Origin: Candidatus Omnitrophota bacterium
GTDB taxonomy: Bacteria > Omnitrophota > Gorgyraeia > 2-01-FULL-45-10
Assembly: GCA_041648975.1 (NCBI GenBank)
Contig: JBAZNZ010000009.1
Span: 1,033 to 65,032 of the forward strand
Length of the DNA: 64,000 bases
Direction of reading: 5' to 3'
The translations under genes and the position numbers were made by a program. This document shows positions 14,035-53,238 of the stretch, piece after piece (position 1 is the first letter of the stretch; each line of letters opens with the position of its first letter). The notes beneath the pieces are model-generated. The model was not told the DNA's origin, ran no database searches, and worked only from the letters and a program-made list of their open reading frames with translations.

Positions 14035-14140
14035 GTTACGTAATGTTACGTAAAGTTAGTGAATGTTACGTAAGGTTACAAAAGTCTACTAACCTTACGT
14101 AACCTTAATTAACCTTCACTAGCCTTATGTAACCTTTTAA
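14035..14140. repeat. word-built hairpin (TTACGTAA/GGTTAC words)
   Basis: GTTACGTAATGTTACGTAAAGTTAGTGAATGTTACGTAAGGTTAC ... ACCTTACGTAACCTTAATTAACCTTCAC...; lies between the TPR gene and tkt-N. Confidence 0.65.
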
Positions 14141-14152
14141 TAGCGAGACCAC

Positions 14153-16734: not shown

Positions 16735-16752
16735 GAGGCGGGCATCTTGGGA

Positions 16753-17757
16753 ATGAAAACAAAGCGGACCTGTTCTTTAATTTTACTGGTTACTGGTTAC
16801 TGGTTACTGGTTACTTTTTTAAACGGTTGCACCCCGACATACCCTAAAGAGAAATTTAAGGAATGCATACTTGAGGTATGTAAAAAGGAATATAAGGTAG
16901 ACGTCAAGGTCGGCGCGGCCGGCAAGACGGTGGCGATATACCTGCCGCTTGAGAATCTGCTCGATTTCACATTCGCCATAACAAAAGAGGCGAGCGAGCA
17001 TATAAACGACGTGCTGCTTAGCGTATCGCGCGTCTCGTTGTCGACGGACGCGGACTATGACTTTTATGTTATCATCGCCCATGATATCCGTATCCCGGAG
17101 ATACAGATAGTTATTATCAAGTCCGTGGACGATGTGAAGAGGTTCATGTTGAACGATATATCCAGGGGAGAATACGGCAAGAGGATGCTCATAGACCTGC
17201 GCATGAATCCCCAGGCGCAGAAAGAACGCGCCGTAAAAGAGATATTCCAGAAGATGAACCTCGATAAGAAGTGGCAGGAAGACGTGATGAACGACTTCTT
17301 CAGGGCCGAGCCGACGGCGCTTAGCGATATCGGGTACTGGAATAACAGGTTTTATGTTAAAGATATCGCGATGACCGAATTCCTGGCGGAACAGGTAGCC
17401 TCCAGGATCAAAATAGATTTCAGGGAGGACAAGAAATTATCGGACGCGTTTTCGGTCAAGTCGTCCAAGGGGCGGTATCTGGACAAAAACGGCAAACGTT
17501 ATTTCCAGTTCGACCTGTCGATAGGGCCCGGTTCGCCCGAAGCGTTGGTGGATGAAAATTACCCGGGCAGGATACTCGAGGAAGCCCTTAAGATCGCCGT
17601 AAACGTGCTCCGCGGTTACTTCTTCGAAGATTATGATTACATAGAGATAGTCAATCAGGCCGATAAGAAGATGATAAGGGTTTCCCGGGAAGACGCGGAG
17701 AGATTCAGGACGAAAAAGATAAAATTCAAGGATATACTTATAGAAGGTATCGCGTAG
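16753..17757 (+). CDS. hypothetical lipoprotein
   Basis: MKTKRTCSLILLVTGYWLLVTFLNGC signal peptide with lipobox; the hydrophobic h-region is encoded by the (TTACTGG)4 tandem repeat. Confidence 0.55.
   Translation: MKTKRTCSLILLVTGYWLLVTFLNGCTPTYPKEKFKECILEVCKKEYKVDVKVGAAGKTVAIYLPLENLLDFTFAITKEASEHINDVLLSVSRVSLSTDADYDFYVIIAHDIRIPEIQIVIIKSVDDVKRFMLNDISRGEYGKRMLIDLRMNPQAQKERAVKEIFQKMNLDKKWQEDVMNDFFRAEPTALSDIGYWNNRFYVKDIAMTEFLAEQVASRIKIDFREDKKLSDAFSVKSSKGRYLDKNGKRYFQFDLSIGPGSPEALVDENYPGRILEEALKIAVNVLRGYFFEDYDYIEIVNQADKKMIRVSREDAERFRTKKIKFKDILIEGIA
16783..16814 (+). repeat. tandem heptanucleotide repeat (TTACTGG) x 4.5 inside the lipoprotein signal-peptide coding region
   Basis: TTACTGGTTACTGGTTACTGGTTACTGGTTAC read directly from the sequence. 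Confidence 0.9.
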
Positions 17758-18741: not shown

Positions 18742-19680
18742 ATGACATCCATAGAATTAACTGCGCCTGCTAAAGTAAACCTCGTCCTAAAGATCCTCGG
18801 CAAGCGAAAAGACTCCTATCACAATATCTATACTCTATTTGAGAAGATATCCCTTTGCGACCGTATACGGATAACAAAGATTCGGGAAGGCATTATCGTC
18901 TCTTCGGATAGATTTATTACGCGTAGCCCTAAAGATAACCTGGTGTATAAAGCCGCCAAGCTGTTTCTGGGGCGCCATAAGCTGAAATACGGCGTAAAGA
19001 TAGACATTAAGAAGAAGATACCGATAGCGGGCGGCCTTGGCGGAGGCAGTTCGGACGCCGCAAGTGTCCTTATGGGAATGGACAGGCTGTTCGGGTTGAA
19101 GATAGGCAGAGCCGGATTGTTAAGTCTTGCCGCCAGGCTGGGTTCCGACGTCCCGTTCTTTATCCTGGACGTACCGTTTGCCGTCGGCAGGGGCCGGGGA
19201 GAGCGTCTGGAGAAGGCTGATGTAAGAAAACGCCTCTGGCACTTGATAATCTATCCCGGTTTCAAGGTATCCACAAAGGATGTTTACGAGGCTTTTGACG
19301 CCCATCAAGAGGCCTTGGTCCCTCGCCGGGGCTCGGGATCAAGGCCTGAGCATTTGCCGAAGGCCTTGACAACACGCCATTGCGGTGATAGAATAATCCG
19401 TCAATCGGCGGGTTCTATGGACTTTGGCGAGATCGAATCTATGCTTTACAACGACCTTGAAGAGACGGTTATAGCTAAAAAAGAGACGATCGGTAAGGTA
19501 ATAGAACGCTTGGCTTCTTCTCTAAACAAGAAAGCGATTGTATCGGGAAGCGGGCCAAGCGTATTTTGTCTCTATAGGGACGGAAAGGAGGCGCTCGCCG
19601 CTAAAAGAAGGCTTTTGGGTAGCCTGCCGGCGCCTGAACGGGCAAGCTGGCAGGTATTTGTCGCGAAAACAGAGAAATAA
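18742..19680 (+). CDS. ispE: 4-diphosphocytidyl-2-C-methyl-D-erythritol kinase
   Basis: LTAPAKVNLVLKILGKR N-terminus and GHMP-kinase motif PIAGGLGGGSSDAA. The ATG at 18742 is preferred over the longer upstream ORF-track extension. Confidence 0.85.
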   Translation: MTSIELTAPAKVNLVLKILGKRKDSYHNIYTLFEKISLCDRIRITKIREGIIVSSDRFITRSPKDNLVYKAAKLFLGRHKLKYGVKIDIKKKIPIAGGLGGGSSDAASVLMGMDRLFGLKIGRAGLLSLAARLGSDVPFFILDVPFAVGRGRGERLEKADVRKRLWHLIIYPGFKVSTKDVYEAFDAHQEALVPRRGSGSRPEHLPKALTTRHCGDRIIRQSAGSMDFGEIESMLYNDLEETVIAKKETIGKVIERLASSLNKKAIVSGSGPSVFCLYRDGKEALAAKRRLLGSLPAPERASWQVFVAKTEK

Positions 19681-19775
19681 GGTAAGTAATGTTAATTTGA
19701 GGAATTTGCGCCTCGGCAATCAAAATATTGCCTCGGCATAAATTTTTCTTCGAAAAATTTAGGAGCTTATACACC

Positions 19776-20270
19776 ATGGAGATCACGGAGATAAAGATTT
19801 TTATGAAAGAAGGGCAGGACAAGAAGCTAAAGGCTTACGCGACGCTTACGCTCGATAACGCGTTCGTCGTCAGGAACGTGAAGGTCATAGAAGGCACAAA
19901 AGGCCTCTTCGTCGCTATGCCTTCCAGGAAGATAAAAGAGCCTTGCCCTAAGTGCGGTTTCAGGAATGCGGTGAGGAGCAAATACTGCAACCAGTGCGGC
20001 GGTAGCCTCCCGCAGAGCCACGAGCCCAGGCCGGTTCAGCCGGGAGAAGATATGGCAAGACAGTCGGAGCACAAGGATATCGCGCATCCGATAACCGCGG
20101 AATGCAGGGACTACATACAGAAGAAAGTCCTGGATGCTTACGAGAATGAAAAAACGAAAGGTCCTTCGACTCGACCGAGCGCTCCGTCAACCGTTCCACA
20201 GAGCGCCCCGCAGCACAGGGGCCCTCACGCTATCGGAGACGTCGAGGAGGATAACGATATAGAGTTATAA
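19776..20270 (+). CDS. spoVG: SpoVG-family protein with an inserted C4 zinc ribbon and extended C-terminus
   Basis: MEITEIKIF...GLFVAMPSRK ... DIAHPITAE match the SpoVG core. Roughly 42 extra residues carrying CPKC...CNQC lie between those blocks. An AGGAG ribosome-binding site sits 10 nt upstream of the ATG at 19776. Confidence 0.75.
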   Translation: MEITEIKIFMKEGQDKKLKAYATLTLDNAFVVRNVKVIEGTKGLFVAMPSRKIKEPCPKCGFRNAVRSKYCNQCGGSLPQSHEPRPVQPGEDMARQSEHKDIAHPITAECRDYIQKKVLDAYENEKTKGPSTRPSAPSTVPQSAPQHRGPHAIGDVEEDNDIEL

Positions 20271-20321
20271 GACAGTTCAGCAAGTCAGTTTGCAACATCC
20301 CGAGGCCTATGGCCGAGGGAT

Positions 20322-20546
20322 AAAATTTTTCGCTCCACCACAGGGCAGCTTAACGGCAGGCGCCCTTTCGGCTAATTTTGCCGTCAAGAGTATTTGAGTT
20401 TGATAGTAGTTATATATTTTTTTATCTTGCCGTTATGGATACAACGGTTTAAAGAGTTTAGATTATGGTGCAGCCTCGGCAAAATATGACGCCTCAAGGG
20501 CTACCTGCCGTTATCTGCCCTTGCAGTCAGAGTGAAGAAATTTTAC
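20322..20546 (+). mobile_element. MITE-like element copy A (~225 bp, ~65-bp terminal inverted repeats)
   Basis: Left end AAAATTTTTCGCTCCACCACAGGGCAGCTTAACGGCAGGCGCCCTTTCGGCTAATTTTGCC; right end is its inverted complement ...GGCAAAATATGACGCCTCAAGGGCTACCTGCCGTTATCTGCCCTTGCAG..GTGAAGAAATTTT. Confidence 0.6.
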
Positions 20547-20778
20547 TGGAGAGGCGGGGCGGCTGGTAAGACGTTATCAAAATTTACGGCTCCCGCCTGC
20601 CAGCGAGAGACTGCTTCAGGCGGGCAGGCAACCCACGTGGCCGGTTGCCGTCGTCGCCATAATAGAGCGAAAAAATTTTGTCTGGGAGGACAAGGAAAAT
20701 TTCGCTCCAGCAACGACCCAAAAGTTCTGCCATCTGACGGGCCGAAAAATTATATCGGAGGAACAAGTTGGATGGGAT

Positions 20779-20852
20779 TGCCCGGTGGTGTAATGGTAGC
20801 ACACCAGCCTTTGGAGCTGTGGGTCCTGGTTCGAATCCAGGCTGGGCAACCA
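20779..20852 (+). tRNA. tRNA-Gln (anticodon UUG)
   Basis: Cloverleaf folded by eye. Acceptor stem TGCCCGG/CTGGGCA with U1-A72 as in bacterial tRNA-Gln; anticodon loop CTTTGGA; T-arm GGTTCGAATCC; 3' CCA encoded. Confidence 0.85.
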
Positions 20853-20974
20853 AATTTCGCCTGAGTTAGACTACGACGAAATTTGATCCTGAGAACGCGA
20901 CGAATAGGAGCGTTCGAAGGACCTGATCAGTTCATGAGTAACTGTTGAAGTCGAAGAACAATAAAGAACATTTT

Positions 20975-22243
20975 ATGAAAAACATAACAGCGATTATACT
21001 TGCGGCGGGAAGAGGGACGAGGATGAAGTCCGACGTACCTAAGGTCCTTCATAAGATACTGGGGCGTCCTATCATCTCTTATGTGCTTGACGCTGTCGGG
21101 GACGCCGGTATTTCCAAGACGGTGACCGTCGCCGGATTCGGTATCGACAGACTTAAAGAGTTGTTAGGGGAAGAGACTAAAGTCGTTATCCAGAGGAAGC
21201 TCCTCGGCAGCGGCGACGCGGTCAAGACGGCAAAGAGGGTCCTTGGGAAACATCCCGGCGATATCCTCGTTATCTGCGGAGATACGCCGCTTATCAAGCC
21301 CCGGACGATAAAGGATATCATCGAAAGGCATAAGGCCGCCGGGGCAAGCGCCACCCTTCTGACGGTCAGGTTAAAAGATCCCGCAGGCTACGGCAGGATA
21401 ATACGGTCGAACGCCGGCAAGATAGTAAAGATCATGGAAGAGGAAGACGCCCATTCTTACGGCGAAGTTGTTAACGAAATTAACGTCGGCACTTATTGTT
21501 TTAAGGCAAAAGACCTTTTTGAAGCGCTATCCGGTATAAGGCCCAATAACAGGAAGAAAGAATTTTTCCTGACCGACGTAATAGAAATTCTGGGTAAAAA
21601 AGGTTTGCCGGTAGAAGCGGTTTCGGCCAAAGACGCGAGCGAGATGATAGGCATAAATACGAGAAAAGACCTGGCTGTTGCTACGGCTACAGTCAAGAGC
21701 AGGATATTGAACGAGCTTATGGACGCAGGCGTTACGATAGAAGACCCGCTATCGACCGTAATATATCCGGGCGCGAAGATCGGCCGCGATACGGTCATTT
21801 ACGCAAATACATATATAGAATCGGATGTGGAGATAGGCGCCTCCTGCCTTATAGGCCCTTTTACGCGGCTAAGAAAAGGCGTGCGTATAGGCAACCGTGT
21901 TGAGGTGGGGAATTTTGTGGAGCTTGTCAGGACAGAAGTGGGCGACGATACAAAGGTAAAACATCATACTTATCTTGGAGATACTAAGTTAGGGAAGTCA
22001 GCCAATATCGGCGCCGGCGTCATTACGGCAAACTACGACGGGAAGAATAAGAATAGGACCATTATAGAAGACGGAGCTTTCATAGGCGTCGGGGCCAGGC
22101 TGATAGCGCCCCTGTCGATCGGCAAAGGCGCAGTCGTCGGAGCAGGGGCAGTCGTGCCTAAGAACCACGATGTCCCGAAAGGCGCGACGGTGTTGGGCGT
22201 GCCGGCGAGGATATTAAAAAAAAGGTTACATAACGTTACGTAA
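20975..22243 (+). CDS. glmU: bifunctional UDP-N-acetylglucosamine pyrophosphorylase / glucosamine-1-phosphate N-acetyltransferase
   Basis: AIILAAGRGTRM nucleotidyltransferase motif followed by a C-terminal left-handed beta-helix hexapeptide-repeat domain. The ATG at 20975 is preferred over the TTG at 20945. Confidence 0.85.
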   Translation: MKNITAIILAAGRGTRMKSDVPKVLHKILGRPIISYVLDAVGDAGISKTVTVAGFGIDRLKELLGEETKVVIQRKLLGSGDAVKTAKRVLGKHPGDILVICGDTPLIKPRTIKDIIERHKAAGASATLLTVRLKDPAGYGRIIRSNAGKIVKIMEEEDAHSYGEVVNEINVGTYCFKAKDLFEALSGIRPNNRKKEFFLTDVIEILGKKGLPVEAVSAKDASEMIGINTRKDLAVATATVKSRILNELMDAGVTIEDPLSTVIYPGAKIGRDTVIYANTYIESDVEIGASCLIGPFTRLRKGVRIGNRVEVGNFVELVRTEVGDDTKVKHHTYLGDTKLGKSANIGAGVITANYDGKNKNRTIIEDGAFIGVGARLIAPLSIGKGAVVGAGAVVPKNHDVPKGATVLGVPARILKKRLHNVT

Positions 22244-22325
22244 GGTTAGCGAAGGTTACGTAACGTTAATAAAACTCAAGCAACCTTACATAACCTTAAT
22301 TAACTTTCACTACCATTACGTAACA
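22214..22325. repeat. word-built hairpin (TTACGTAA words) overlapping the glmU 3' end
   Basis: AAGGTTACATAACGTTACGTAAGGTTAGCGAAGGTTACGTAACGTTAAT ... AACCTTACATAACCTTAATTAAC..CATTACGTAACAT; the glmU stop codon TAA is part of a TTACGTAA word. Confidence 0.65.
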
Positions 22326-22336
22326 TAAAAAGGGGT

Positions 22337-23284
22337 TTGACCATGAAAAATCACCTGCTAATATTCAGCGGTAATTCAAACAAGAAGCTTACCGTCGACA
22401 TCTGTAAATATCTGGGGGTGGAGCTGGGCGACGCGTCGCTCGACACTTTCTCCGACGGAGAGATCCGATTCAAGATAAACGAGAACGTCCGCGGACATGA
22501 TGTATTCGTGGTCCAGTCGACGTGTTCCCCGACGAATGATTATCTCATGGAGCTCCTAATCATGATAGACGCGCTCAAACGGTCTTCGGCCCGGCGCATA
22601 ACCGCGGTATTGCCGTATTTCGGTTACGCCAGACAGGACAGGAAAGACCAGCCGCGCGTCCCGATAACGGCGAAGCTCGTCGCTAACCTGCTCACCCAGG
22701 CCGGCGCCGACAGGGTGCTTACGATAGACCTGCACGCCGGGCAGATCCAGGGCTTCTTTGACATACCGCTCGACCACCTCTTCGCTTTTAAATTAATGAC
22801 CGACCATATTAAAAAGATGAAATTGGATAAGAATATCGTAGTAGTCTCGCCCGACGTCGGCGGCATAAAGACTGCCAGGGCCTACGCCAAAGGGCTTAAA
22901 CGCAACCTCGCCATCGTCGATAAAAGGCGCGTCAATGATAAAGAGGCGGAAGTGATGCATATAATGGGAGACGTCAAGGGTAAGGACGTTGTGCTTGTGG
23001 ATGACATGGTGGCTACCGCAGGTTCTCTCGTTGAGGCCGTCGAAGCGCTGAAGAAGGAAGGGGCCAATGATGTTTACGCGGCTATTACCCATCCGGTCCT
23101 TTGCGGCCCGGCAATAGAGAGACTTAAGAGATCGGCGCTTAAAGAATTGATCGTTACCGATACCATACCTATAGGCAAAGAGAAGGCGATTAAGAACATT
23201 AAAGTCCTGTCTGTCGCCCCGCTTCTGGGGGAGGCGATAAAGAGGATACATGAAGAAGAATCGATAAGCGTGTTGTTTAACTGA
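22337..23284 (+). CDS. prs: ribose-phosphate pyrophosphokinase
   Basis: 315-aa ORF with the PRPP-binding motif VLVDDMVATAGS. Confidence 0.9.
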   Translation: MTMKNHLLIFSGNSNKKLTVDICKYLGVELGDASLDTFSDGEIRFKINENVRGHDVFVVQSTCSPTNDYLMELLIMIDALKRSSARRITAVLPYFGYARQDRKDQPRVPITAKLVANLLTQAGADRVLTIDLHAGQIQGFFDIPLDHLFAFKLMTDHIKKMKLDKNIVVVSPDVGGIKTARAYAKGLKRNLAIVDKRRVNDKEAEVMHIMGDVKGKDVVLVDDMVATAGSLVEAVEALKKEGANDVYAAITHPVLCGPAIERLKRSALKELIVTDTIPIGKEKAIKNIKVLSVAPLLGEAIKRIHEEESISVLFN

Positions 23285-23320
23285 AATTACCACTGATGGG
23301 TAAAAAGGAGAGAGTTACAC

Positions 23321-24040
23321 ATGGAAAAGGTGATACTGAAAGCGGAAGTCAGGACTGAAACAGGCAAGAGAATAGCGAAAGACCTTAGGGCAAAAGGCCT
23401 TATACCGGCAAATGTTTACAGGCAAGGCAAGGCGGCGCTGAGCCTCCAGGTCGCCAACGTCGAGTTGAAGGATGTCCTGCATACGTCGGCCGGAGAGAAC
23501 GTTATCATAACGCTGAAGATATCCGGAGGCGCGGTCACTATTAAGGATAAGACCGTGTTGATAAAGGAGATACAGCGTGAGCCTATAAAGGACAGTGTCC
23601 TTCATGTCGATTTCAATGAGATATCGTTGACAGAGACGTTGAAGGTTGACGTTCCCATTACCGCCCATGGCGAGCCTGTCGGCGTAAAAGTGGACGGCGG
23701 TATCCTGGAACACGTTATGAGAGAACTGCAGGTGGAATGTCTGCCTACAGATATACCCGAGAAGATAGAGGTGGAGATCTCGTCGTTGAAGATAGGGGAC
23801 GCCGTGTACGTGAAGAGCGTAAAGGTGCCTGATGGCGTCAAGGTCCTTAATGATCCGGAATTGATAGTCATGATAGTGAAGCCTCCTAAGGTAGAGGCTC
23901 CGAAAGAGGAAGTCGCCGCTGAAGGCGCGGCGGAACCGGAGCTTATCCGCAAGAAGAAAGAGGAAGAAGCCGGTGAAGGCGAGGAAGGGGCCGCTCCGAA
24001 AGAAGGCGAAAAAGGCCCGGCTAAAGAAGAGAAGAAATAG
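23321..24040 (+). CDS. rplY: ribosomal protein bL25 / general stress protein Ctc
   Basis: bL25 core followed by a K/E-rich C-terminal tail; 239 aa. Confidence 0.85.
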   Translation: MEKVILKAEVRTETGKRIAKDLRAKGLIPANVYRQGKAALSLQVANVELKDVLHTSAGENVIITLKISGGAVTIKDKTVLIKEIQREPIKDSVLHVDFNEISLTETLKVDVPITAHGEPVGVKVDGGILEHVMRELQVECLPTDIPEKIEVEISSLKIGDAVYVKSVKVPDGVKVLNDPELIVMIVKPPKVEAPKEEVAAEGAAEPELIRKKKEEEAGEGEEGAAPKEGEKGPAKEEKK

Positions 24041-24051
24041 AGGTTAAGTGT

Positions 24052-24630
24052 ATGAAATTCATAGTCGGCCTCGGTAATCCGGGGATGGAGTACCGTTCCA
24101 CAAAACACAATATGGGTTCTGCGGTAGTAAAGGCCCTGGCGAAAGAGAACCATATCAGGATAAACCAGAAACTCCACTTTTCGCTTGTGGGCAGAGGAAA
24201 AATATCCGGAGAGGATGCAGTGCTGGTCCTTCCCGAGACATACATGAACCTATCGGGCCATGCTGTCGGCGAGCTCTTCAGATGCGAGGTAAAAGACGTG
24301 AACGACCTCATTATCATATGCGACGACATAAACCTGGAGTTGGGTAAGATAAGGCTTAAGACGCACGGATCCTCCGGAGGGCATAAAGGACTGGAATCGA
24401 TAGTGGCCACTCTGCGCCGCGACGATTTTCCGCGCCTGCGCGTAGGAATAGCCACGGAAGTTCACAAAGGCGATATAACGAACTACGTCCTTAGTCCTTT
24501 CAAACGCAAGGAGATGCGTAATGTGACGCATGTGATATCGTTGGCATCCGACGCCATTACCTGCCTTGTCGGGAAGGGTATCGATATAGCTATGAATAAG
24601 TTCAATAAAAGGAAAGTCGGCACGTCATAG
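24052..24630 (+). CDS. pth: peptidyl-tRNA hydrolase
   Basis: FIVGLGNPG N-terminus and the catalytic His region; 192 aa. Confidence 0.9.
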   Translation: MKFIVGLGNPGMEYRSTKHNMGSAVVKALAKENHIRINQKLHFSLVGRGKISGEDAVLVLPETYMNLSGHAVGELFRCEVKDVNDLIIICDDINLELGKIRLKTHGSSGGHKGLESIVATLRRDDFPRLRVGIATEVHKGDITNYVLSPFKRKEMRNVTHVISLASDAITCLVGKGIDIAMNKFNKRKVGTS

Positions 24631-26501: not shown

Positions 26502-27893
26502 TTGTTAGAGAGTGCTATGGCTCAAGAGTCGATAGAAAAGGTCCCGCCGCAAAACGTAGAAGCCGAGATAGCGGTCATCGGATCCATGCTCTTAGATCAC
26601 GACGCTATTTCGCAGGCCGTAGAGATATTGAATTCGGATTATTTCTATAAAGAATCCCACAGGAAATTATACTCCGCGATGTTAAGGCTCTTCGACGAGA
26701 ACAAGGCCGTCGACATCATAACGGTCATGGAAGAGCTCAAGAAGACAAACTCACTTGATGACGCAGGCGGCCCGGCCTACATATCGAGCCTCGCGTCGGC
26801 CGTCCCTACCACAGCAAATTTTGTCCATTACGCTAAGATAGTCAAGGAAAAGGCCCTTCTCAGAAACCTCATTAATACAGCCACCCAGATAGTCACCGAA
26901 TGTTATGATACCACCATGGACGCCGATACGCTTGTGGACAAGGCGGAACAGCGCATATTCGACGTTACATCCAAGAAAGTGGAATCCAGGTTCGTCTCCC
27001 TTAGAGAAGTCATAAAAGATTCCATAGAGACCATAGACAACCTTTACCAGAGAAAAGAGAATATTACCGGCATAGCTACCGGCTACAGGGAACTCGATAT
27101 GAGGACCGCCGGGCTGCAGCCCTCTGACCTGGTGGTTATAGCGGGCCGTCCTTCGATGGGTAAAAGCGCGCTGGCTTCATGCATAGTGGAGCATGCGGGC
27201 GTTATCGAAAAAGAGCCGGTCGCGTTCTTCAGCCTTGAAATGTCCAAAGAACAGCTCGTCCAGAGGATGCTATGTTCGCACGCGAGAGTCGACGCGCATA
27301 AGGTCAGGACGGGTTTTCTGTCCCAGGCGGATTGGCCGAGGCTCGTCAGCGCGGCCGGAAAGTTATCGGAAGCGCCTATCTACATAGATGATTCACCGGG
27401 CATAACGGTCCTGGAGCTGAGGGCTAAGGCACGGCGGCTAAAGGCCCAGTTCGATATTAAATTGATAGTGCTCGATTATCTCCAGCTTATGCAGGGGCCC
27501 GCTAGATCCGAATCGAGGCAGCAGGAGATATCCGAGATATCCAGGTCGCTGAAGGCTATAGCCAAAGAGTTGAAGGTGCCGCTCATCGCTATAAGCCAGT
27601 TGTCGCGCGCTGTGGAGCAAAGGTCCGACCACAGGCCCCAGCTTTCCGACTTGAGGGAGTCGGGCGCTATTGAACAGGATGCCGACCTGGTGCTGCTTCT
27701 CTTGAGAGAGGAGTATTACAACCCGACCGATGAGAACAAGGGTATTGCGGAGGTCATAATAGCTAAGCAGAGGAACGGCCCAGTAGGGAGCCTGAACCTC
27801 GCGTTTCTCGGAGAGTATATGCGTTTTGAGAACATTGCCCAGAAGTCGGAAGATTTTGTCGACGTGGATATGGAAAAGATGGAGAGAGTGTGA
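26502..27893 (+). CDS. dnaB: replicative DNA helicase
   Basis: 463-aa ORF with Walker A GRPSMGKSA and RecA-like motifs; no intein seen. Confidence 0.9.
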   Translation: MLESAMAQESIEKVPPQNVEAEIAVIGSMLLDHDAISQAVEILNSDYFYKESHRKLYSAMLRLFDENKAVDIITVMEELKKTNSLDDAGGPAYISSLASAVPTTANFVHYAKIVKEKALLRNLINTATQIVTECYDTTMDADTLVDKAEQRIFDVTSKKVESRFVSLREVIKDSIETIDNLYQRKENITGIATGYRELDMRTAGLQPSDLVVIAGRPSMGKSALASCIVEHAGVIEKEPVAFFSLEMSKEQLVQRMLCSHARVDAHKVRTGFLSQADWPRLVSAAGKLSEAPIYIDDSPGITVLELRAKARRLKAQFDIKLIVLDYLQLMQGPARSESRQQEISEISRSLKAIAKELKVPLIAISQLSRAVEQRSDHRPQLSDLRESGAIEQDADLVLLLLREEYYNPTDENKGIAEVIIAKQRNGPVGSLNLAFLGEYMRFENIAQKSEDFVDVDMEKMERV

Positions 27894-30208
27894 GACGCTA
27901 CAAAATAATCGCGATCCTTATATTGCCTGTGATGCTGTGCGGCGTTTTTACGGCCGTTTCTTATTCACAAGGCGCCGCCGGGAACGAGGGAAGGACCATT
28001 GCAAGCGTAAATGTAAAGAATAACAGGGTCATCAGCACCGAGACCATATTAGCCAAGATAAAGACGAGGGCGCAGGAAAAATTCAGTCAGGATGTCGTTA
28101 ACGACGATATAAAAAGACTTTATGCGATGCAGTTCTTTACCGATATATCAATAGACGTGGAAGAGCGCGACGACGGCGTGGCCGTGACGTTCCTTGTGGA
28201 AGAGAAACCGGTCATCGAAGATATCGTTTTTAAGGGCAATACGGCCCTGCGGAGCCAGAAGCTTAAATCGACGATGAAATCGAAACCCAATGAAATGCTT
28301 AATCTCACTTTGCTGGCCCAGGATATAGCCGAAATAAAAGAACAATATATAAAGAAAGGTTATCCGCTCGCGGAGGTCGCGTATACGCTTGGTGTGGATA
28401 AAGAGACCAATAAGGCGACCATTAACATCGCGGTAGACGAAAAGACGCATATAAAGGTGGCGAGCATCAACATCTCCGGCAATAAGGCCGTACCTACAAA
28501 CAAGATAAAGAAGATATTGGGGACGAAGCCCGCATGGCTCTTCAACCCGGGAGTATTTAAAGAAGAAGTTTTACAGGAGGACCTCGACAAGATAAGGGCT
28601 ATGTACGACGATATAGGGTATCTTGACGTTGACGCCGTGCCGAGATTGGATTACATAGAGAACGGCACTAAACTCAACATCAATGTGGATGTGATAGAAG
28701 GCAAGCAGTATAAGGTCGGCGACATATCGGTAAAAGGCAACCTCGTCCTGCCCGAAAAAGACGTTAACGGCAGGATAACGATGAAGAAGGGGAAACCTTT
28801 TTCTACCAGGATGCTGCGCGATGATTCCTCGGCCGTAAGGCAATATTATTATAAATATGGGTATATGAACGTCATTGTCGATGTGGATCGGCAGCTGAAC
28901 CAGGATACGGGTGATATCGATATCGTATATAATGTCGACGCCAAAGAGATCGTGTATGTCGGCAAGATAGAGGTTAAGGGCAATACGAAGACCAGGGATG
29001 TCGTGGTCAGGAGGGAAGTCAGGCTGTACCCCGGAGATAAGTTCGACGGAGACAAGATAAGGCGTTCGAAGGAGAGGATATATAACCTCGGATTTTTCGA
29101 GAACGTCGGTTTCGATACCGAGGCGACCGGGAATCCGAATGTCCAGGATCTCGTAGTGAACGTCAAAGAGACGAAGACCGGCGAATTCTCCTTCGGCGGC
29201 GGGTATAGTTCGGTGGATATGTTATTGGGCTTCGTGGAGATAACGCAGAGGAATTTCGATCTCTTGAATTTCCCTTCATTTACCGGCGCCGGACAGAACC
29301 TGTCGATCAAGGCCGAGATAGGCATGGTCAGGAATAATTTCGATCTGGCATGGACAGAGCCGTGGATATTCGGATATCCCTACCTTTTCGGGTTCGACGT
29401 TTACAGGACGACCCATTACCAGAAAGGCGAGCTGGGATGGGCGTATGATGAGTCCAGGACGGGATTCAACATGAGGCTGGGAAAAGAGTTTACGGATTAT
29501 ATCAGGGCCGATCTTAACTACAGGATAGAGGAAGTACAGATATCGGATGTCATCGATAACGCGTCCCAGGACTTCAAAGACGAAGCGGGAAAGAATTGGA
29601 TATCGAAATTGACGTTCGACCTTACAGTAGATACCCGGGATAACATATTCAATCCTATGAGAGGTTACGTAGCCAACGGTTACGTAGAGAACGCCGGCGG
29701 CATCATAATGGGCGATAAGGATTTCGTAAAAGGCGGCGCCTCGGCGGCGTATTACCATACATTCTTCCAAAAAATAGTCCTCGAGGTAAAGGGAAGGCTC
29801 GGTCTCGAGAGCGCGTATAGCGATACGGCAAAGGTGCCCATATACGAACGGTTCTACGCCGGCGGAGCGAATACAATACGCGGATATAAGGAAAGACGCG
29901 TGGGCCCGAGAGATACCGGGTCCAATGAGCCCATAGGAGGCGAGAGCATGCTTATAGGCAACGCGGAACTTACCTTCCCTATATACGAGAGGGTGATAAA
30001 AGGGGCGGTATTCTATGACGTAGGTAATGTATGGGGTAAGATGGGAGATTTTGTCAGAGGCGGGGAATTTCGTTCCGGCGCGGGAGTCGGCTTAAGGGTT
30101 AAGACCCCGGTCGGTCCCGTGAAGGTGGATTACGGTTATCCGCTGAATAAGAATTATCAGGACGAAAGGACCGGAGAGTTCTATTTCAGTATGTCGAGGG
30201 GGTTTTAG
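27890..30208 (+). CDS. bamA: outer membrane protein assembly factor BamA
   Basis: 772-aa ORF with signal peptide, POTRA repeats and a C-terminal beta-barrel ending ...FYFSMSRGF. Confidence 0.85.
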   Translation: MRRYKIIAILILPVMLCGVFTAVSYSQGAAGNEGRTIASVNVKNNRVISTETILAKIKTRAQEKFSQDVVNDDIKRLYAMQFFTDISIDVEERDDGVAVTFLVEEKPVIEDIVFKGNTALRSQKLKSTMKSKPNEMLNLTLLAQDIAEIKEQYIKKGYPLAEVAYTLGVDKETNKATINIAVDEKTHIKVASINISGNKAVPTNKIKKILGTKPAWLFNPGVFKEEVLQEDLDKIRAMYDDIGYLDVDAVPRLDYIENGTKLNINVDVIEGKQYKVGDISVKGNLVLPEKDVNGRITMKKGKPFSTRMLRDDSSAVRQYYYKYGYMNVIVDVDRQLNQDTGDIDIVYNVDAKEIVYVGKIEVKGNTKTRDVVVRREVRLYPGDKFDGDKIRRSKERIYNLGFFENVGFDTEATGNPNVQDLVVNVKETKTGEFSFGGGYSSVDMLLGFVEITQRNFDLLNFPSFTGAGQNLSIKAEIGMVRNNFDLAWTEPWIFGYPYLFGFDVYRTTHYQKGELGWAYDESRTGFNMRLGKEFTDYIRADLNYRIEEVQISDVIDNASQDFKDEAGKNWISKLTFDLTVDTRDNIFNPMRGYVANGYVENAGGIIMGDKDFVKGGASAAYYHTFFQKIVLEVKGRLGLESAYSDTAKVPIYERFYAGGANTIRGYKERRVGPRDTGSNEPIGGESMLIGNAELTFPIYERVIKGAVFYDVGNVWGKMGDFVRGGEFRSGAGVGLRVKTPVGPVKVDYGYPLNKNYQDERTGEFYFSMSRGF

Positions 30209-30215
30209 GGGCGTA

Positions 30216-30247
30216 GTTATAAGTCGTAAGTTTTAAGTTGTAAGATA
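30216..30247. repeat. short word-built hairpin (GTAAG words)
   Basis: TTATAAGTCGTAAGTTTTAAGTTGTAAGATAA; lies downstream of bamA. Confidence 0.45.
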
Positions 30248-30256
30248 AAAAAATAG

Positions 30257-30790
30257 ATGCGAAATTTAAAAAAGGGGGAGAAGATGAAGAAGCTGATGGT
30301 TTTAGCGGTAGCGGCAGTTTTTGCATTTGGCCTTTTCACCGGCGTGGCGGGAGAGGTTTACGCTAAGGAATACAAGCTCGCTTATGTAGACCTGGCGAAA
30401 GTATTTGATGAATATAAGAAGACTAAGGATTCGGAAAAAAACCTAGAAGAAAAAGGCAAGGCGAAAGAGGCCGAACGGAATAAGATGGTAGATGAATTGA
30501 GGAAACTCAAGGATGAGCAGGCTCTTCTTTCGGAAAAAGGCAAGGCCGATAAGCAGAAGGTCATAGATGAGAAGATAAAAGTTCTGCAGGCATTCGATAG
30601 TAAGGCCCAGGCCGAGCTCATGAAGGAGAGGAACGATCTTCTTGGCGGCATCATGAAGGACATAGAAAAGGTCATCGGCGACTACGCTAAAGAAGCGGGT
30701 TACGACATAGTGCTCAATTCGCGCATGCTGTTATACGGCGGAGAACAGTACGACGTGACGGCTGAGGTACTCAAAAGGCTGAATAAGTAA
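30257..30790 (+). CDS. skp: OmpH/Skp-family periplasmic chaperone
   Basis: Signal peptide followed by a coiled-coil K/E-rich body; conserved position between bamA and lpxD. Confidence 0.75.
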
Positions 30791-30807
30791 ACCGCATCGA
30801 TAAATAT

Positions 30808-31836
30808 ATGTCTAAAAAAGTAAAGGAAATAGCGCGGTTCATCGGCGGCGAAGTCGTCGGCGACGGCGAGATTTTGATAAAAGGCATAAACGGCATTAAT
30901 GAGGCGCGCGAAGGGGACCTCTCTTTCCTGCTGAACATTAAATGCGACGGTCTGCTGGAGAAGACGTGCGCCAGCTGCGTAGTGGTGCCGAAGACCATAA
31001 AGAAGAGTTGTCAGAAACCTCTTATCAAGGTCGATGACCCGTCGACCGCTTTCTCTAAGATAATCGATGTCCTGTTCCCGGAAAGGATCCCGCATCCGAA
31101 AGGTGTCCATCCTACGGCGGTGATATCGAAGAGCGCCAGGCTCTCCCGCAACGCCGCTGTGGGGCCGTATGCTGTCATCGAGGACGGCGCCGAGATAGGC
31201 GATAATACCGCGATTTATCCATTCTGCTATGTAGGCAAAAATGCCAAAGTAGGTAAAGACTGTATTATATATCCCAATGTCACCGTCAGGGAAGAGGTGA
31301 TCATCGGGAATAGAGTCATAATACATTCCGGCACGATAGTCGGAAGCGACGGGTTCGGTTACGATGTCCAGCCGGATGGGACCTTTTTTAAGATACCGCA
31401 GGTAGGAACCGTCGTCCTGGAAGATGACGTCGAATTGGGCGCCTGCGTAACGATAGACCGCGCCAGATTTAATAAGACTGTAATAGGTAAGGGGTCCAAG
31501 ATAGACAATCTGGTCCAGATAGCGCACAATGTCATCCTGGGCCCGAATTGCGTTATAGCGGCTCAAACAGGTATATCCGGGAGCACCGAACTTGGCAGGA
31601 ACGTGATATTCGGGGGCCAGGTAGGAGTGGCGGACCATCTTAAGATAGGTGACTTTGTCCGCGCCGGCGCCAAGACCGGCATATCTAAATCTTTTCCCGC
31701 CAACACTACTTTGTTCTGGTATCCGGCAAAACCGGTAGATAAGGCGAGAGATATCATAGCGTCTATCGGGCTCTTGCCCAAACTCTATGAACGCGTCCGC
31801 GCGCTGGAATCCAGGATAAAAGAATTAGAGAAGTGA
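30808..31836 (+). CDS. lpxD: UDP-3-O-(3-hydroxyacyl)glucosamine N-acyltransferase
   Basis: 342-aa ORF with a left-handed beta-helix hexapeptide repeat domain. Confidence 0.85.
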
Positions 31837-32747
31837 TCCCTATTAGACAAAGGACGATAAAAGATCAGGTTGTGGTGGAAGGCGTCGGCCTCCAGACAGG
31901 CAAGCCGATAACATTAAAGCTTAACAGCGCCCCCGCAAATTCAGGCGTAAATTTCATAAGGACCGATCTTCCAAATAAACCCCTTTTAAACATACGATCT
32001 TTAGGCCCAACTATGAACCAGAACATTCTCCCCAAACACTCCGGGGGTTCGGTTCATAGTTGCCATGAACCGAACGAAGTTCTGGTTCATGGCAAGGCCC
32101 CGGAACGCAGGACTACTCTGGGCACAGGCCCACTCCAGATACAGACAACGGAACATTTTCTCGCCGCTCTTTCAGGCCTCGGTATAGATAATATAACCGC
32201 CGAATTGGATAATGTAGAACTGCCCGGCCTGGACGGAAGCGCATTAGGCTTTGTCGAGGCGTTGAAGAAGGCCGGGATGCGGGAGCAGGACGAGCCCCGG
32301 AAGGTATTGAAAGCGGAGAACGCTGTTTGGGTCAGGGGCGATGACAATATATTGGCTGTCTTTCCGAGCGATGAATTCAAGATCTCGTACACGATGTCTT
32401 ACAAGAACCCGTCTCTCGGGACCCATTTTTTTGAGATAGCCGTGAACGAAAAGTCCTTTGAAAAGGAGATAGCGCCGGCAAGGACGTTCTGCCTGAAAGA
32501 AGAGGCCCTCATACTTTTGAAGATGGGGTTGGGCAAGGGAGCCAATTACGATAACACCCTTGTAATAAGTAAAGAGGGCCCGGTGAAGAATAAACTGAGG
32601 TTCGCCGATGAACCTGTCAGGCATAAAGTGCTCGATCTCATAGGAGACCTCTATATACTGGGTATGCCGCTTATCGGTCATGTAGTAGCTGTAAAGAGCG
32701 GCCATAAATTGAATATGGAACTTGTGAAGAAACTTAAAAAGGAGTGA
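31833..32747 (+). CDS. lpxC: UDP-3-O-acyl-N-acetylglucosamine deacetylase carrying an in-frame ~27-aa insertion
   Basis: LpxC blocks are present ([29 protein letters not shown]). About 27 extra residues lie between the TDL and EHFLAAL blocks, encoded by the palindromic DNA at 32011-32092. Confidence 0.85.
32011..32092 (+). repeat. 82-bp double-palindrome inserted in frame within lpxC
   Basis: CTATGAACCAGAAC-[22 nt]-GTTCGGTTCATAG TTG CCATGAACCGAAC-GAA-GTTCTGGTTCATGG: two tandem hairpins with arms swapped. Confidence 0.8.
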
Positions 32748-32754
32748 GCTATAG

Positions 32755-33231
32755 ATGGGTGAAAAAGCGCTTGATATATTAGGGAAGACGCTGGATATAA
32801 ACCAGATACAGCAGATATTGCCCCACAGGTATCCGTTCCTGTTCGTCGACAAGATAGTCGAAGTAAGCGAAAAAAAGGTCGTCGGCATTAAGAATGTCAC
32901 TATAAACGAACCTTTCTTTCAGGGCCACTTTCCGGGGCATCCGATAATGCCGGGAGTCCTTATCATAGAGGCGATGGCCCAGGTAGGCGGCGTCGGCGCG
33001 CTCAATATGAGAGATAACCTGGGAAAGCTTGCGTATTTTTTAAGCATAAATAACGCCAGATTTCGGAAGCCGGTGCTGCCCGGAGACGTCTTGAGGATAG
33101 AGGTCGATCTCCTGAAGACAAAGCTTAGCGTCATGCAGGTACATGCGGTGGCAAAGGTCGGTGATGATGTGGTTGCCGAGGCAGACCTCATGTTCGCGTT
33201 CATCAGGTCGTCTGAAGAAGAGAAGAAATAA
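32755..33231 (+). CDS. fabZ: 3-hydroxyacyl-ACP dehydratase
   Basis: Hotdog-fold motifs [11 protein letters not shown] and [19 protein letters not shown]. Confidence 0.9.
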
Positions 33232-33237
33232 TATAAA

Positions 33238-34041
33238 ATGACAAGAATAGGTCTGGTCGCAGGTTCAGGTAAGCTTCCTTCTGTTTTTGCCCGCGTGGCG
33301 AAAGACAAAGGGGATATTGTGATAGCGTTCGCCCTTAAAGGGGTGACCGATTCGGGTCTGGAAGAGCACGTCCACAAGATACACTGGTTCGAATGGGGCG
33401 ATCTCAAGAAGGCTGTCCTATTGCTGGCTGCCGAGAGGATAAGGAAGATCGTAATGCTGGGCAAGGTAAAGAAAGAGACGGTCTTTAAAGACGACAAGAA
33501 TCTTGACGCCGACGCAAAGTCGATCCTGAATAAGATCGACGGAAAGCAGGACTACCAGATACTTAACGGGATAGCCGATTTTCTGGGTAAATTCGGCGTT
33601 GAGGTCCTCGATTCCACCACATATCTTAAAGACCTTATACCCTCTAAGGGCCTTCTTACCAGGAGAGAGCCTACAAAAAAGGAGCTGGAAGATATAGAAT
33701 ACGGTAGTTCTGTCGCAAGAACGATGTCCATGTTCGATATAGGCCAGACGATCGCCGTGAAAGACAGGTCTGTCATCGCCGTGGAAGCCGCTGAGGGGAC
33801 GGATGAGACGATCCTCCGCTCCGGCTCCCTTGTCAAGGGCGGATTCGTCGTAGTGAAAGTCGCGCGTCCTAACCAGGATATGCGGCTCGATGTGCCGCTT
33901 ATCGGGCCGGATACTCTTATGACTCTTATAAAGGCAGGCGGCAGCGTTCTCGCCCTTGAGGAAAAAAAGACCATCCTTATGGATAAGGATGGTCTTGTAA
34001 AGCTCGCCGACGAAAACGGAATATCCGTCGTAATAATTTAG
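33238..34041 (+). CDS. lpxI: UDP-2,3-diacylglucosamine hydrolase LpxI (DUF1009 family)
   Basis: 267-aa ORF with N-terminal IGLVAGSGKLP; located between fabZ and lpxB where lpxI/lpxH normally sits. Confidence 0.65.
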   Translation: MTRIGLVAGSGKLPSVFARVAKDKGDIVIAFALKGVTDSGLEEHVHKIHWFEWGDLKKAVLLLAAERIRKIVMLGKVKKETVFKDDKNLDADAKSILNKIDGKQDYQILNGIADFLGKFGVEVLDSTTYLKDLIPSKGLLTRREPTKKELEDIEYGSSVARTMSMFDIGQTIAVKDRSVIAVEAAEGTDETILRSGSLVKGGFVVVKVARPNQDMRLDVPLIGPDTLMTLIKAGGSVLALEEKKTILMDKDGLVKLADENGISVVII

Positions 34042-35564
34042 AGCAGCGGCAGGTACTTCTTGATCTCGTAGCCCGTTATCTGCGTCCTGTAGTCCTCCCA
34101 CTCCTTCTTCTTATTTATCAGGAACCTTGTGAATATATGCTCTCCGAGCGCCTCTTTTACCAGGGCGCTCTTTTCAGTCTCCGCTATGGCTTGATAGAGA
34201 TTCCCCGGCAACGCTACGAGGCCCCTGTGTTCCCGCTCGGACATCTCCATCTTGTATATGTTCGGCTCGACCGGCTCAGGCGCCTTATATTGTTTCTCTA
34301 TGCCGTCGAGTCCGGCGGCCAGCATGACGGCGAAGGCCAGATACGGATTGGCTGACGGGTCCGGGCACCGCAGCTCAGCCCTCGTTGCCTTCTCGTTCCC
34401 GGGCCTGTATACCGGCACCCTTATAAGCGCCGTCCTGTTCTTTTGCGCCCATGACGAGTATACCGGCGCCTCATATCCCGCGACAAGCCTCTTATAAGAA
34501 TTGACCCATTGCGCGGTAAGGGCGCATATCTCTCTGGAGTGTTTTATCTGCCCGGCTATGAAATGTTTCGCGATGGCCGACAGGTGGTGCTTGTCGTCTC
34601 TGTCATAAAAAGCGTTCTTGTCGCCTTTGAACAAGGATTGATGGACGTGCATACCGCTCCCGGCCACGCCGTATATGGGCTTAGGCATGAAGGTAGCGTA
34701 GACGCCATGAGCCTTTGCCACTTCCTTTATGCAGTATCTGGCCGTTATGATATTATCGGCCATAGTTAAAGCCTTGCTGTACCTTAAGTCTATCTCGTGC
34801 TGGGACGGGGCGACTTCGTGGTGGCTCGCCTCCATGGGTATGCCCATCTTTTCCAGTATCCCGACGGTCTTGTTCCTCAAGACGTCCGCGATATCATTAG
34901 GGATGAGCTCAAAATATGTCCCTTCGTCCAGGGTCTCAGGAGCTTTCTCGGATTTAAAGTAGAAATATTCAAGCTCCGGGCCTATGTAAAGGGTCAGCCC
35001 CATCTTTTCGGCCCTATCAAGCTGCCTTTTCAGCGCGTATCTGGAGTCGCCGGCATAAGGCGTCCTATCGGGGTTCAGTATGTCGCAGAATAACCTTGCT
35101 ACCGGTTCGGCCGATCCCTCCCACGGCAGTATCTGGAACGTCGCCGGGTCAGGCATCGCTATGATATCGGATTCCTGCGCCTCGGCAAAGCCCGTCACCG
35201 AAGAGCCGTCGAATCCCTTGCCGTGGTAGAGCGCCTCCTCGAGGTCCCTCGGCGTTATAGAAACGCACTTCAATATGCCGAGGATATCGACGAACCATAA
35301 TTGTATGGTGTTGATGTTATTGTCCTTTACCATCTTAAGGACTTTGGCTTCGCTTCCTTTTCCGCGCAGCATCTTCTTCATATCAGCCTCTTTATGGTGG
35401 CTTTCGCCCTTTTTAAGTTTTGCTGCCTCATCGTTGTCGATGATATATTGCCTGCCCGCCCTGGTAGCTTTTATCGTGCCCTTATTTATCCTGTCTATGA
35501 CGGCCTGTCTCGATATACCCATCACCTTGGCCAATTGTGTAGGGCTTATGTATCCTTGTGCCAT
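34038..35564 (-). CDS. glnA: type I glutamine synthetase fused to an N-terminal excisionase/MerR-like HTH DNA-binding domain
   Basis: N-terminal MAQGYISPTQLAKVMGISRQAVIDRINKGTIKATRAGRQYII (HTH_17 pattern), then a GS beta-grasp and catalytic domain (KPIYGVAGSGMHVHQSL). The ATG at 35564 with AAAGGAG ribosome-binding site is preferred over the TTG at 35585, which lies inside the operator palindrome. Confidence 0.8.
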   Translation of the reverse strand: MAQGYISPTQLAKVMGISRQAVIDRINKGTIKATRAGRQYIIDNDEAAKLKKGESHHKEADMKKMLRGKGSEAKVLKMVKDNNINTIQLWFVDILGILKCVSITPRDLEEALYHGKGFDGSSVTGFAEAQESDIIAMPDPATFQILPWEGSAEPVARLFCDILNPDRTPYAGDSRYALKRQLDRAEKMGLTLYIGPELEYFYFKSEKAPETLDEGTYFELIPNDIADVLRNKTVGILEKMGIPMEASHHEVAPSQHEIDLRYSKALTMADNIITARYCIKEVAKAHGVYATFMPKPIYGVAGSGMHVHQSLFKGDKNAFYDRDDKHHLSAIAKHFIAGQIKHSREICALTAQWVNSYKRLVAGYEAPVYSSWAQKNRTALIRVPVYRPGNEKATRAELRCPDPSANPYLAFAVMLAAGLDGIEKQYKAPEPVEPNIYKMEMSEREHRGLVALPGNLYQAIAETEKSALVKEALGEHIFTRFLINKKKEWEDYRTQITGYEIKKYLPLL

Positions 35565-35578
35565 AATATCTCCTTTGC

Positions 35579-35621
35579 TTGACAATTGTCAAGTCTATCA
35601 TACAGCTTGTCACTTGTCAAG
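35579..35621 (-). promoter_or_regulatory. putative operator of the HTH-GlnA fusion gene: perfect palindrome TTGACAATTGTCAA plus two further TTGACAA/CTTGTCA half-sites
   Basis: On the plus strand: GCTTGACAATTGTCAAG at 35577-35593, immediately 5' of the ribosome-binding site, and CTTGTCACTTGTCAAG at 35606-35621. Confidence 0.55.
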
Positions 35622-35633
35622 TGTAAAGTGGGG

Positions 35634-35860
35634 AAAATTTTTCTGCTCCACCACAGGGCAGCTTAACGGCAGGCGCCCTTTCGGCTAATTTTGCCGTCAA
35701 GAGTATTTGGGTTTAGTATTAATAATAAATTTTTCACCTTGCTGTTATGGAGACAGCGGCTTAAAAAGAGTTTGTGTTGCGGTGCGGCCTCGGCAAAATA
35801 TAACGCCTCAAGGGCTACCTGCCGTTATCTGCCCCTGCAGTCGGAGCGAAGAAATTTTAT
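35634..35860 (+). mobile_element. MITE-like element copy B
   Basis: Near-identical ends and internal hairpin to copy A; located upstream of the glnA operator. Confidence 0.6.
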
Positions 35861-53165: not shown

Positions 53166-53176
53166 AGTATGTATAA

Positions 53177-53222: not shown

Positions 53223-53238
53223 AACAAGGGGCTCTATC

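Follow-up and report, generated by a model that had tools for sequence, protein, structure and literature searches.

What kind of protein is encoded by a spoVG gene whose frame is enlarged by a cysteine-bearing insertion and a C-terminal extension, and what might these additions do? The question is raised by a 64,000-nucleotide stretch of DNA (hereafter the window) from a metagenome-assembled genome (MAG) of Candidatus Omnitrophota, in which such a gene occupies positions 19776-20270 of the + strand. SpoVG is a widespread DNA- and RNA-binding regulator whose mechanism is poorly understood. Here we show that the product is a bona fide SpoVG-fold protein with a conserved Cys4 insertion and a disordered, acidic-tipped tail, and we propose a model for the function of both additions.

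The gene and its product

Direct reading of the sequence gives a frame that runs uninterrupted from the ATG at 19776 to the TAA at 20270, that is 164 codons plus the stop; an earlier note on this DNA had put the product at 165 residues, one more than are counted. A Shine-Dalgarno-like AGGAG (19761-19765, + strand) lies 10 nt upstream of the start codon, and Met1 is the start in 94% of homologues (here and below, conservation figures refer to 476 complete homologues sharing about 40% overall identity). A longer open reading frame (ORF) beginning at TTG-19728 was considered and rejected, as homologues begin at MEITE. The product is 100% identical to a protein from a MAG annotated at NCBI as ‘septation protein SpoVG family protein [Candidatus Omnitrophota bacterium]’ (P0001).

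The SpoVG identity claimed in the earlier note is borne out by profile and by structure. The Pfam SpoVG profile PF04026 matches residues 1-123 (E=1.2e-28, 99.5 bits against a cut-off of 29.6), covering profile positions 1-81 of 82 and bridging the insert. An AlphaFold2 (AF2) model of the whole product, built from a 146-sequence alignment, matches the solved SpoVG structures 2i9z, 2i9x and 2ia9 in Foldseek with probability 1.0 and a target template modelling (TM) score of 0.72-0.78. The NCBIfam equivalog NF009749 was missed, at 94.6 bits against a cut-off of 108, with the match split in two by the insert; the protein is thus a SpoVG family member, not a certified equivalog. We identify the gene as the SpoVG orthologue of a Candidatus Omnitrophota bacterium, in the form that is normal for its lineage.

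The insert is a conserved Cys4 module

The three PDB SpoVGs align to residues 1-53 and then to 97-126, with only two residues of their own in between, which amounts to a net insertion of about 41 amino acids directly after AMPSRK. The insertion proposed earlier thus stands. The protein can be divided into consecutive segments, all encoded on the + strand. The N-terminal SpoVG beta core (residues 1-53; 19776-19934) aligns to PDB SpoVG residues 4-55 and ends in AMPSRK with the doublet Arg51-Lys52. It is followed by the predicted Cys4 zinc ribbon KEPCPKCGFRNAVRSKYCNQCGGSL (residues 54-78; 19935-20009), by a return loop of variable length and low model confidence (residues 79-98; 20010-20069), and by the HKDIAHPIT segment with the C-terminal alpha helix (residues 99-128, the helix spanning 108-128; 20070-20159), which aligns to PDB SpoVG residues 58-87. 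A disordered linker and an acidic tip complete the chain.

Within the insert, CPKCGFRNAVRSKYCNQC contains the pattern CPKC-x10-CNQC, formed by C57, C60, C71 and C74 (codons at 19944, 19953, 19986 and 19995). The pair of CxxC knuckles had been recognised correctly in the earlier note, where the spacer was given as 13 residues; it counts 10. When the protein was shuffled 200,000 times, only 100 of the products had any CxxC-x5-25-CxxC arrangement. None of the four cysteines varies (476/476), be it in close or in distant orthologues, and H104, P105 and R111 are likewise 100% conserved, with Q115 at 94%. The ribbon has a net charge of +4, and its basic positions K/R 59, 63, 67 and 69 are 77-94% conserved; further conserved positions are F/Y70 (96%), N64 (86%), N72 (84%), G75 (99%) and G61 (54%). 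On either side of the insert, R51 and K52 are each conserved in 93% of sequences, and the doublet together with D101-I-A-H-P-I106 reaches 93-100% in the subfamily. The return loop is different in character: the distance from C74 to the HP pair ranges from 20 to 39 residues, and R95 (80%) is its only conserved residue.

At the codon level we compared 78 Omnitrophota coding sequences, namely those of 77 related species loci and the window gene. Both TGC and TGT are used for the cysteines, R67 is written with six Arg codons and S68 with six Ser codons. Invariant residues combined with synonymous codon turnover show that selection acts on the protein. A frameshift or an assembly error as the source of the insert was rejected, since the frame is continuous and the same architecture recurs in hundreds of independent assemblies. 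Neither of the two outcomes that the earlier note named as refuting its reading was observed. The insert with its predicted zinc ribbon is real and strongly conserved.

How widespread is the insert, and what was known of it?

A scan of GTDB with one genome per species returned at least 332 relatives, and the locus figures given here refer to the best 80, which are Omnitrophota or third-party annotation (TPA) MAGs coarsely labelled Planctomycetia. All 80 of these related Omnitrophota species loci contain the insert; the motif starts at residue 57 in 77 of their 78 complete spoVG ORFs, the exception (L019) being frameshifted. The best 120 clusters at 90% identity all have the same 18-residue cysteine pattern, and when 1.84 billion cluster representatives were searched exhaustively with HMMER, 149 of the top 150 matches had the motif. 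The single match lacking it, P0137, is a metagenomic protein of 388 amino acids that consists of four tandem SpoVG domains without a ribbon. Named carriers comprise Omnitrophota, Planctomycetota and Phycisphaerae, including the isolate Phycisphaerae bacterium RAS2, as well as Ca. Ancaeobacter aquaticus (Ca. Auribacterota, a member of the Planctomycetes-Verrucomicrobia-Chlamydiae (PVC) group), Ca. Desantisbacteria and two MAGs labelled Chlamydiae or Chlamydiota. The search for other SpoVGs with a CxxC...CxxC insertion, which the earlier note had called for, yields hundreds across several phyla, and the gene belongs to a large multi-phylum SpoVG subfamily that is widespread in PVC-group phyla. 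As a side observation, one MAG (JAUYPN01, C4_metabat.bin.33) holds three contigs (L002, L017 and L024), each with a different ribbon-type spoVG at 65-74% identity to the query, which suggests a mixed bin rather than paralogues.

A large SpoVG insert of 32-36 amino acids was described by Gupta, Bhandari and Naushad in 2012 as a ‘Planctomycetes-specific’ signature indel (PMC3444138), in a text that contains neither the word ‘zinc’ nor the word ‘cysteine’. The published Planctomycetes proteins share with ours the insertion site, the CxxC-x10-CxxC pattern and N64, R67, N72 and G75, and named Planctomycetota or Phycisphaerae proteins (for example that of Phycisphaerae bacterium RAS2, P0362) align with it column for column, the return loop of the window protein being 4-5 residues longer. 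The exclusivity claimed for Planctomycetes is wrong, because the insert occurs in Omnitrophota, Ca. Auribacterota, Ca. Desantisbacteria and Chlamydiota-labelled MAGs. A full-text literature search returned no paper that describes a zinc ribbon or finger in SpoVG, and none on the SpoVG of Omnitrophota. The insert itself is therefore known, while its identity as a Cys4 ribbon and its occurrence outside Planctomycetes appear to be undescribed in the searchable literature.

Predicted structure and the nucleic-acid-binding site

In the AF2 model the SpoVG core (residues 1-50) has predicted local distance difference test (pLDDT) values of 90-94, with strands at 3-10, 18-26, 30-39 and 44-47. The zinc ribbon (51-80) is predicted at 84-90, with short hairpin strands at 54-56 and 63-65; the return loop (81-100) falls to 52-61, the helix 108-128 stands at about 90, and linker and tail (130-164) at about 50. 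A second model, made for the Phycisphaerae RAS2 protein, again contains the ribbon (pLDDT 88-94) and shows a confident additional helix, 144-165, which corresponds to a YDxLIxxL motif. The structure prediction suggested in the earlier note thus gives a confident two-knuckle ribbon placed on a SpoVG core that matches solved structures. For the ribbon alone, the closest local matches in Foldseek were NZF/RanBP2 fingers (5af6, 0.7 Å over 27 residues; 3gj8, 1.0 Å over 26 residues) and small ribosomal zinc-ribbon proteins such as eL40, all of them non-significant at E>1.

Where does the ribbon lie with respect to the nucleic acid? In characterised SpoVGs a basic doublet, K50/R51 in Staphylococcus aureus and R53/R54 in Borrelia burgdorferi, is indispensable for binding to DNA (Jutras et al. 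2013, PMC3688583). The residues of the doublet project toward the C-terminal helix, six residues of which set sequence specificity (PMC3688583). The SpoVG fold of the window protein is intact, and both the doublet and the helix are retained. The ribbon starts two residues after R51-K52, and the core resumes immediately ahead of DIAHPIT and the helix; the earlier description of the insert as lying at the nucleic-acid-binding site is fair, given this position between the essential Arg/Lys doublet and the specificity helix. None of the three solved entries returned by a PDB sequence search is a nucleic-acid-bound SpoVG.

The canonical proteins (PF04026; 2ia9 of Bacillus subtilis and 2i9z of Staphylococcus epidermidis, together with those of S. 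aureus, B. burgdorferi and Listeria monocytogenes) have the same fold, belong to the same family and share the AMPS-[KR][KR] doublet, the DIAHPI segment and the C-terminal helix. In contrast to them, the window protein has about 41 extra residues in place of TPDGE and about 36 extra residues at its C-terminus.

The ribbon also invites comparison with RanBP2/NZF fingers and with bacterial zinc_ribbon/DZR domains (PF00641, PF12773, PF13240), which like it have two CxxC knuckles. The RanBP2 finger consensus is D-W-x-C-x(2,4)-C-x3-N-x6-C-x2-C, and its RNA-binding members have a stacking Trp or Phe and an Arg-Arg pair (PMC7154859, PMC6384913). The spacing of the ribbon, C-x2-C-x3-N-x6-C-x2-C, is identical to that consensus, conserved Asn included (PMC7154859); unlike these fingers, it is embedded inside another domain rather than being a free-standing repeat. 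In our own alignment the RNA-contacting residues R81 and N86 of ZRANB2 correspond to R67 and N72, both conserved. At the stacking position the window protein has A65, where relatives have His, Ala or Asp, and S68 takes the place of the second Arg. This residue mapping led us to reject membership of the GGU-binding RanBP2 class typified by ZRANB2. As modelled, the ribbon is RanBP2/NZF-like in fold and spacing and lies outside the GGU-binding class.

The linker and the acidic tip

Beyond the helix, the chain continues into a Pro/Ser/Ala-rich linker (residues 129-154; 20160-20237, + strand), 77% of which is P, S, A, T, Q or G and which the model renders as disordered (pLDDT about 47-55). It ends in the acidic tip DVEEDNDIEL (residues 155-164; 20238-20267, + strand), with a net charge of -6. 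The low-complexity extension and the acidic tail reported in the earlier note are both present; the extension measures about 36 residues (129-164), not about 50. Both length and sequence of the linker differ among relatives. The terminus is better kept at close range: 119 of the 120 closest homologues end in DIEL, with the terminal Leu written in six different codons among the 78 coding sequences, yet only 29 of the 78 complete Omnitrophota species-locus ORFs do so, and the remainder end at about 127-145 amino acids, some with AEEED.

Planctomycetes SpoVGs have tails of 100-350 residues with PxYxP, the YDxLIxxL helix, low complexity and a DDxxFGAGIL tip, whereas that of the window protein is short. 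The Planctomycete-type extensions have a median length of about 158 residues and abound in P, E, R, A, D and G; PxYxP was found in 124 and YDxLIxxL in 114 of 204 scored sequences. In 205 of 250 retrieved proteins not of the Omnitrophota type, the chain closes with an acidic run and then F-G-A-G-I-L or something very similar. P0130, P0362 and P0169 are examples that combine a long extension, PxYxP, the YDxLIxxL helix, Arg/Gly/Glu/Pro-rich low complexity and the acidic FGAGIL tip. The last residues of P0130, DDDMGFGEGIL, are close to DDDMGFGLFD of the eukaryotic ribosomal P-stalk, whose tail reads SD[D/E]DMGFGLFD (PMC3280276, PMC2632931).

Bacterial SSB provides another parallel, with its OB-fold core, disordered linker and acidic tip DDDIPF (PMC7145534). 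The likeness is one of architecture only, a binding core, a disordered linker and an acidic tip with a hydrophobic end (DNDIEL as against DDDIPF), with no relationship of sequence or fold; the SSB encoded in the window itself ends in DEVPF. Hfq, with its acidic C-terminal tip, is a second architectural analogue. The similarity of the tips to the P-stalk tail and to SSB is a resemblance only.

A model for the ribbon and the tail

What are the implications of these additions for the function of SpoVG? We favour a reading, to which we would assign a probability of about 0.6, in which the ribbon is a metal site, probably for zinc, that supplies an additional basic contact for nucleic acid, while the tail is a docking or autoinhibitory element of the SSB/Hfq kind. 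We infer both roles. In this subfamily the canonical TPDGE turn that follows the Arg-Lys doublet is replaced by a Cys4 ribbon of about 25 residues and a flexible loop of about 20 residues. The ribbon most likely folds around one metal ion, probably Zn2+, and would form a second nucleic-acid contact beside the canonical SpoVG groove, a role suggested by its basic character and by its conserved Lys/Arg, Asn and Phe/Tyr surface positions. The second contact may raise affinity or shift the preference toward RNA or single-stranded nucleic acid. At the far end of the chain, the tip EEDNDIEL most likely docks a partner protein, or folds back on the basic surface and so autoinhibits binding, or both.

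Several observations weigh against this model. On the side of the ribbon, fingers of the NZF/RanBP2 type often bind proteins rather than RNA, and the D-W pair (here K54-E55), the stacking Trp and the second Arg of the ZRANB2 class are all missing. The Foldseek matches to such fingers fall short of significance because the module is so small, and Pfam zinc-ribbon scores stay under their gathering cut-offs (zf-RanBP 22.5 against 27, DZR 23.1 against 27.3, Zn_Ribbon_1 18.2 against 25); many homologues have precomputed PF12773 or PF13240 matches. On the side of the tail, the AF2 model gives no sign of docking onto the core, more than half of the Omnitrophota species lack the tail, which thus is not essential to the subfamily, and a search of the window and the 80 related loci found no DIEL or FGxGIL tip on other proteins. 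Its single extra match was the second half of the frameshifted spoVG in L019.

The ribbon could instead be a module for protein-protein contacts, for example with the ribosome, RNA polymerase or an RNA-processing enzyme, or for oligomerisation, with nucleic acid left to the canonical groove. We regard this as unlikely. In its favour, the closest local matches of the ribbon are ubiquitin- or Ran-binding NZF/RanBP2 fingers and small ribosomal zinc-ribbon proteins, it lacks the aromatic stacking residue of RNA-binding RanBP2 fingers, and its conserved surface residues would suit a protein interface equally well. However, these structural matches do not reach significance, the ribbon is strongly basic and sits directly between two nucleic-acid-binding elements, and no conserved partner gene is linked to spoVG apart from housekeeping neighbours. 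An improbable alternative is that the Cys4 site acts as a regulatory switch responding to zinc availability or to cysteine oxidation, or as a rubredoxin-like iron knuckle. Both knuckles are of the CxxCG type (G75 and, less strictly, G61), and canonical SpoVG functions without the module, which marks it as an add-on present in some lineages and missing from others. A parallel is offered by zinc-ribbon ribosomal proteins, which occur in cysteine-containing (C+) and cysteine-free (C-) forms. Such a switch would leave unexplained the strict conservation of basic surface residues that are not ligands; moreover, the 10-residue spacer is too short for a rubredoxin core, and the gene neighbourhood gives no hint of regulation by zinc or by redox state.

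That the insert is an artefact of frameshift, misassembly or gene calling, or a functionally neutral lineage marker, is so improbable that it hardly enters the balance. The insert did enter the literature as nothing more than a phylogenetic signature indel (PMC3444138), and return loop and tail do vary in length. Against this, the uninterrupted frame belongs to an architecture shared by no fewer than 476 distinct proteins and no fewer than 78 species-level genomes, the invariant ribbon residues persist through synonymous codon turnover, and AF2 folds the ribbon confidently; an artefactual origin is refuted.

The model of a second nucleic-acid contact can be extended into a bolder proposal, to which we give rather little credence. 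SpoVG of the PVC type might be an RNA hub resembling SSB or Hfq, with a ribbon-reinforced core, a disordered linker and a conserved docking peptide that would recruit a partner to transcripts. The docking peptide would be EEDNDIEL in Omnitrophota and [DE]n-x-F-G-A-G-I-L in Planctomycetes, and the partner might be, for instance, a translational GTPase, the ribosome or an RNA-processing enzyme. On another plane, the shared insert may be read as a rare genomic change that would unite Planctomycetota, Omnitrophota, Auribacterota and their allies.

Gene neighbourhood

Upstream of spoVG lies ispE, a GHMP kinase gene (18742-19680, + strand; Pfam GHMP_kinases_N/C). Downstream follow tRNA-Gln(UUG) (20779-20852, + strand; found by both ARAGORN and Rfam) and, at 20975-24630 on the + strand, glmU, prs, ctc (L25) and pth, all assigned by Pfam. 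Pfam and ARAGORN together confirm the order ispE-spoVG-(tRNA-Gln)-glmU-prs-ctc-pth recorded in the earlier note, whose remark that this is a lipopolysaccharide-bearing organism agrees with the presence of the lipid A and outer-membrane genes lpxD, lpxC, lpxI, lpxB, bamA and skp within the window. The conserved order extends further on both sides: a gene for an ftsH-like protein, one for a 336-amino-acid hypothetical protein, one provisionally called, from sequence alone, a transketolase C-terminal subunit, then ispE-spoVG-glmU-prs-ctc-pth-rpsF-ssb. From the ftsH-like gene to ssb it is kept in 80/80 Omnitrophota loci, as far as the contigs reach. The 336-residue ORF (16747-17757, + strand) has no Pfam or NCBIfam match, yet related Omnitrophota loci keep it in the same position, which suggests a conserved hypothetical protein specific to the lineage.

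In a Phycisphaerae contig and in Auribacterota only ispE-spoVG is kept. The same order of 11 genes, ispE-spoVG-glmU-prs-ctc-pth-rpsF-ssb-rpsR-rplI-dnaB, is found in an assembly labelled ‘Chlamydiae bacterium’ (GCA_016178005.1, locus L082), whose NCBI phylum label may be unreliable. The chromosomal context of canonical SpoVG, beside glmU-prs-ctc-pth, is presumably the same as in the window, and we take the B. subtilis region ispE...spoVG-gcaD/glmU-prs-ctc-pth to be similar in order; a literature search returned no paper documenting the B. subtilis spoVG gene order.

A tRNA-Gln gene lies downstream of spoVG in 47 related loci, and in 44 of them it begins 6-98 nt after the stop codon, a near-abutting arrangement that suggests co-transcription with spoVG. 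In the window the corresponding spacer (20271-20778) measures 508 nt and is enlarged by a repeat element. A scan for promoters and terminators around spoVG found sites no more often than in shuffled sequence. No + strand terminator was predicted between ispE and spoVG or after spoVG, which makes co-transcription plausible; spoVG is probably co-transcribed with the cluster ispE-spoVG-tRNAGln-glmU-prs-ctc-pth. Rfam searches of the whole window, and at permissive settings of 19600-21000, returned tRNAs only, with no leader or small RNA (sRNA) beside spoVG.

Elsewhere in the window, lipid A genes occupy 30808-34041 and 36361-37488, with lpxD-lpxC-fabZ-lpxI and, on the opposite strand, lpxB. The cluster encodes LpxI instead of LpxH, and the scan of ten ORFs in 26502-38411, the only part checked for it, showed no lpxA.

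Intergenic repeats

The element in the spoVG-tRNA spacer belongs to a repeat of about 240 nt, of which the window holds three same-strand copies (20317-20558, 35630-35872 and 40585-40823) with 69-89% identity; the copy directly downstream of spoVG is one of them. Sub-repeats lie at 20671-20751, 35844-35905, 35962-36042 and 40801-40881, and a piece at 1233-1307. The repeat, which the 80 related loci do not conserve, folds into a single long imperfect hairpin (-84.4 kcal/mol, z=-4.1) and so resembles a miniature inverted-repeat transposable element (MITE) or a repetitive extragenic palindromic (REP) element; it could also be an sRNA family. A second intergenic family of about 89 nt (22247-22335, 14056-14144 and 53142-53230) is rich in GTTACGTAAC-type palindromes, with one copy inside the glmU-prs spacer. 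Shorter intergenic pairs were seen at 12402-12475/42862-42935, a palindromic run of TAAG/CTTA units, and at 36291-36351/41113-41173 and 42202-42267/44268-44333.

Significance

For the annotation of the window, the gene is the ordinary SpoVG of its lineage; it adds one more member to a known but functionally uncharacterised subfamily and is no surprise at the level of biology. A published marker is nevertheless corrected, as the large SpoVG insert is common to Planctomycetes, Omnitrophota and further candidate phyla, a distribution that bears on how lineages within and around the PVC group are related. For the SpoVG family, a strictly conserved variant with a predicted extra basic zinc module between two binding determinants represents a natural structure-function comparison of ribbon-plus and ribbon-minus proteins. 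The conservation of the C-terminal tips suggests the existence of protein partners for SpoVG in these phyla. If the RNA-hub proposal were true, the tips would form part of a kind of post-transcriptional control that has not been described in the SpoVG family.

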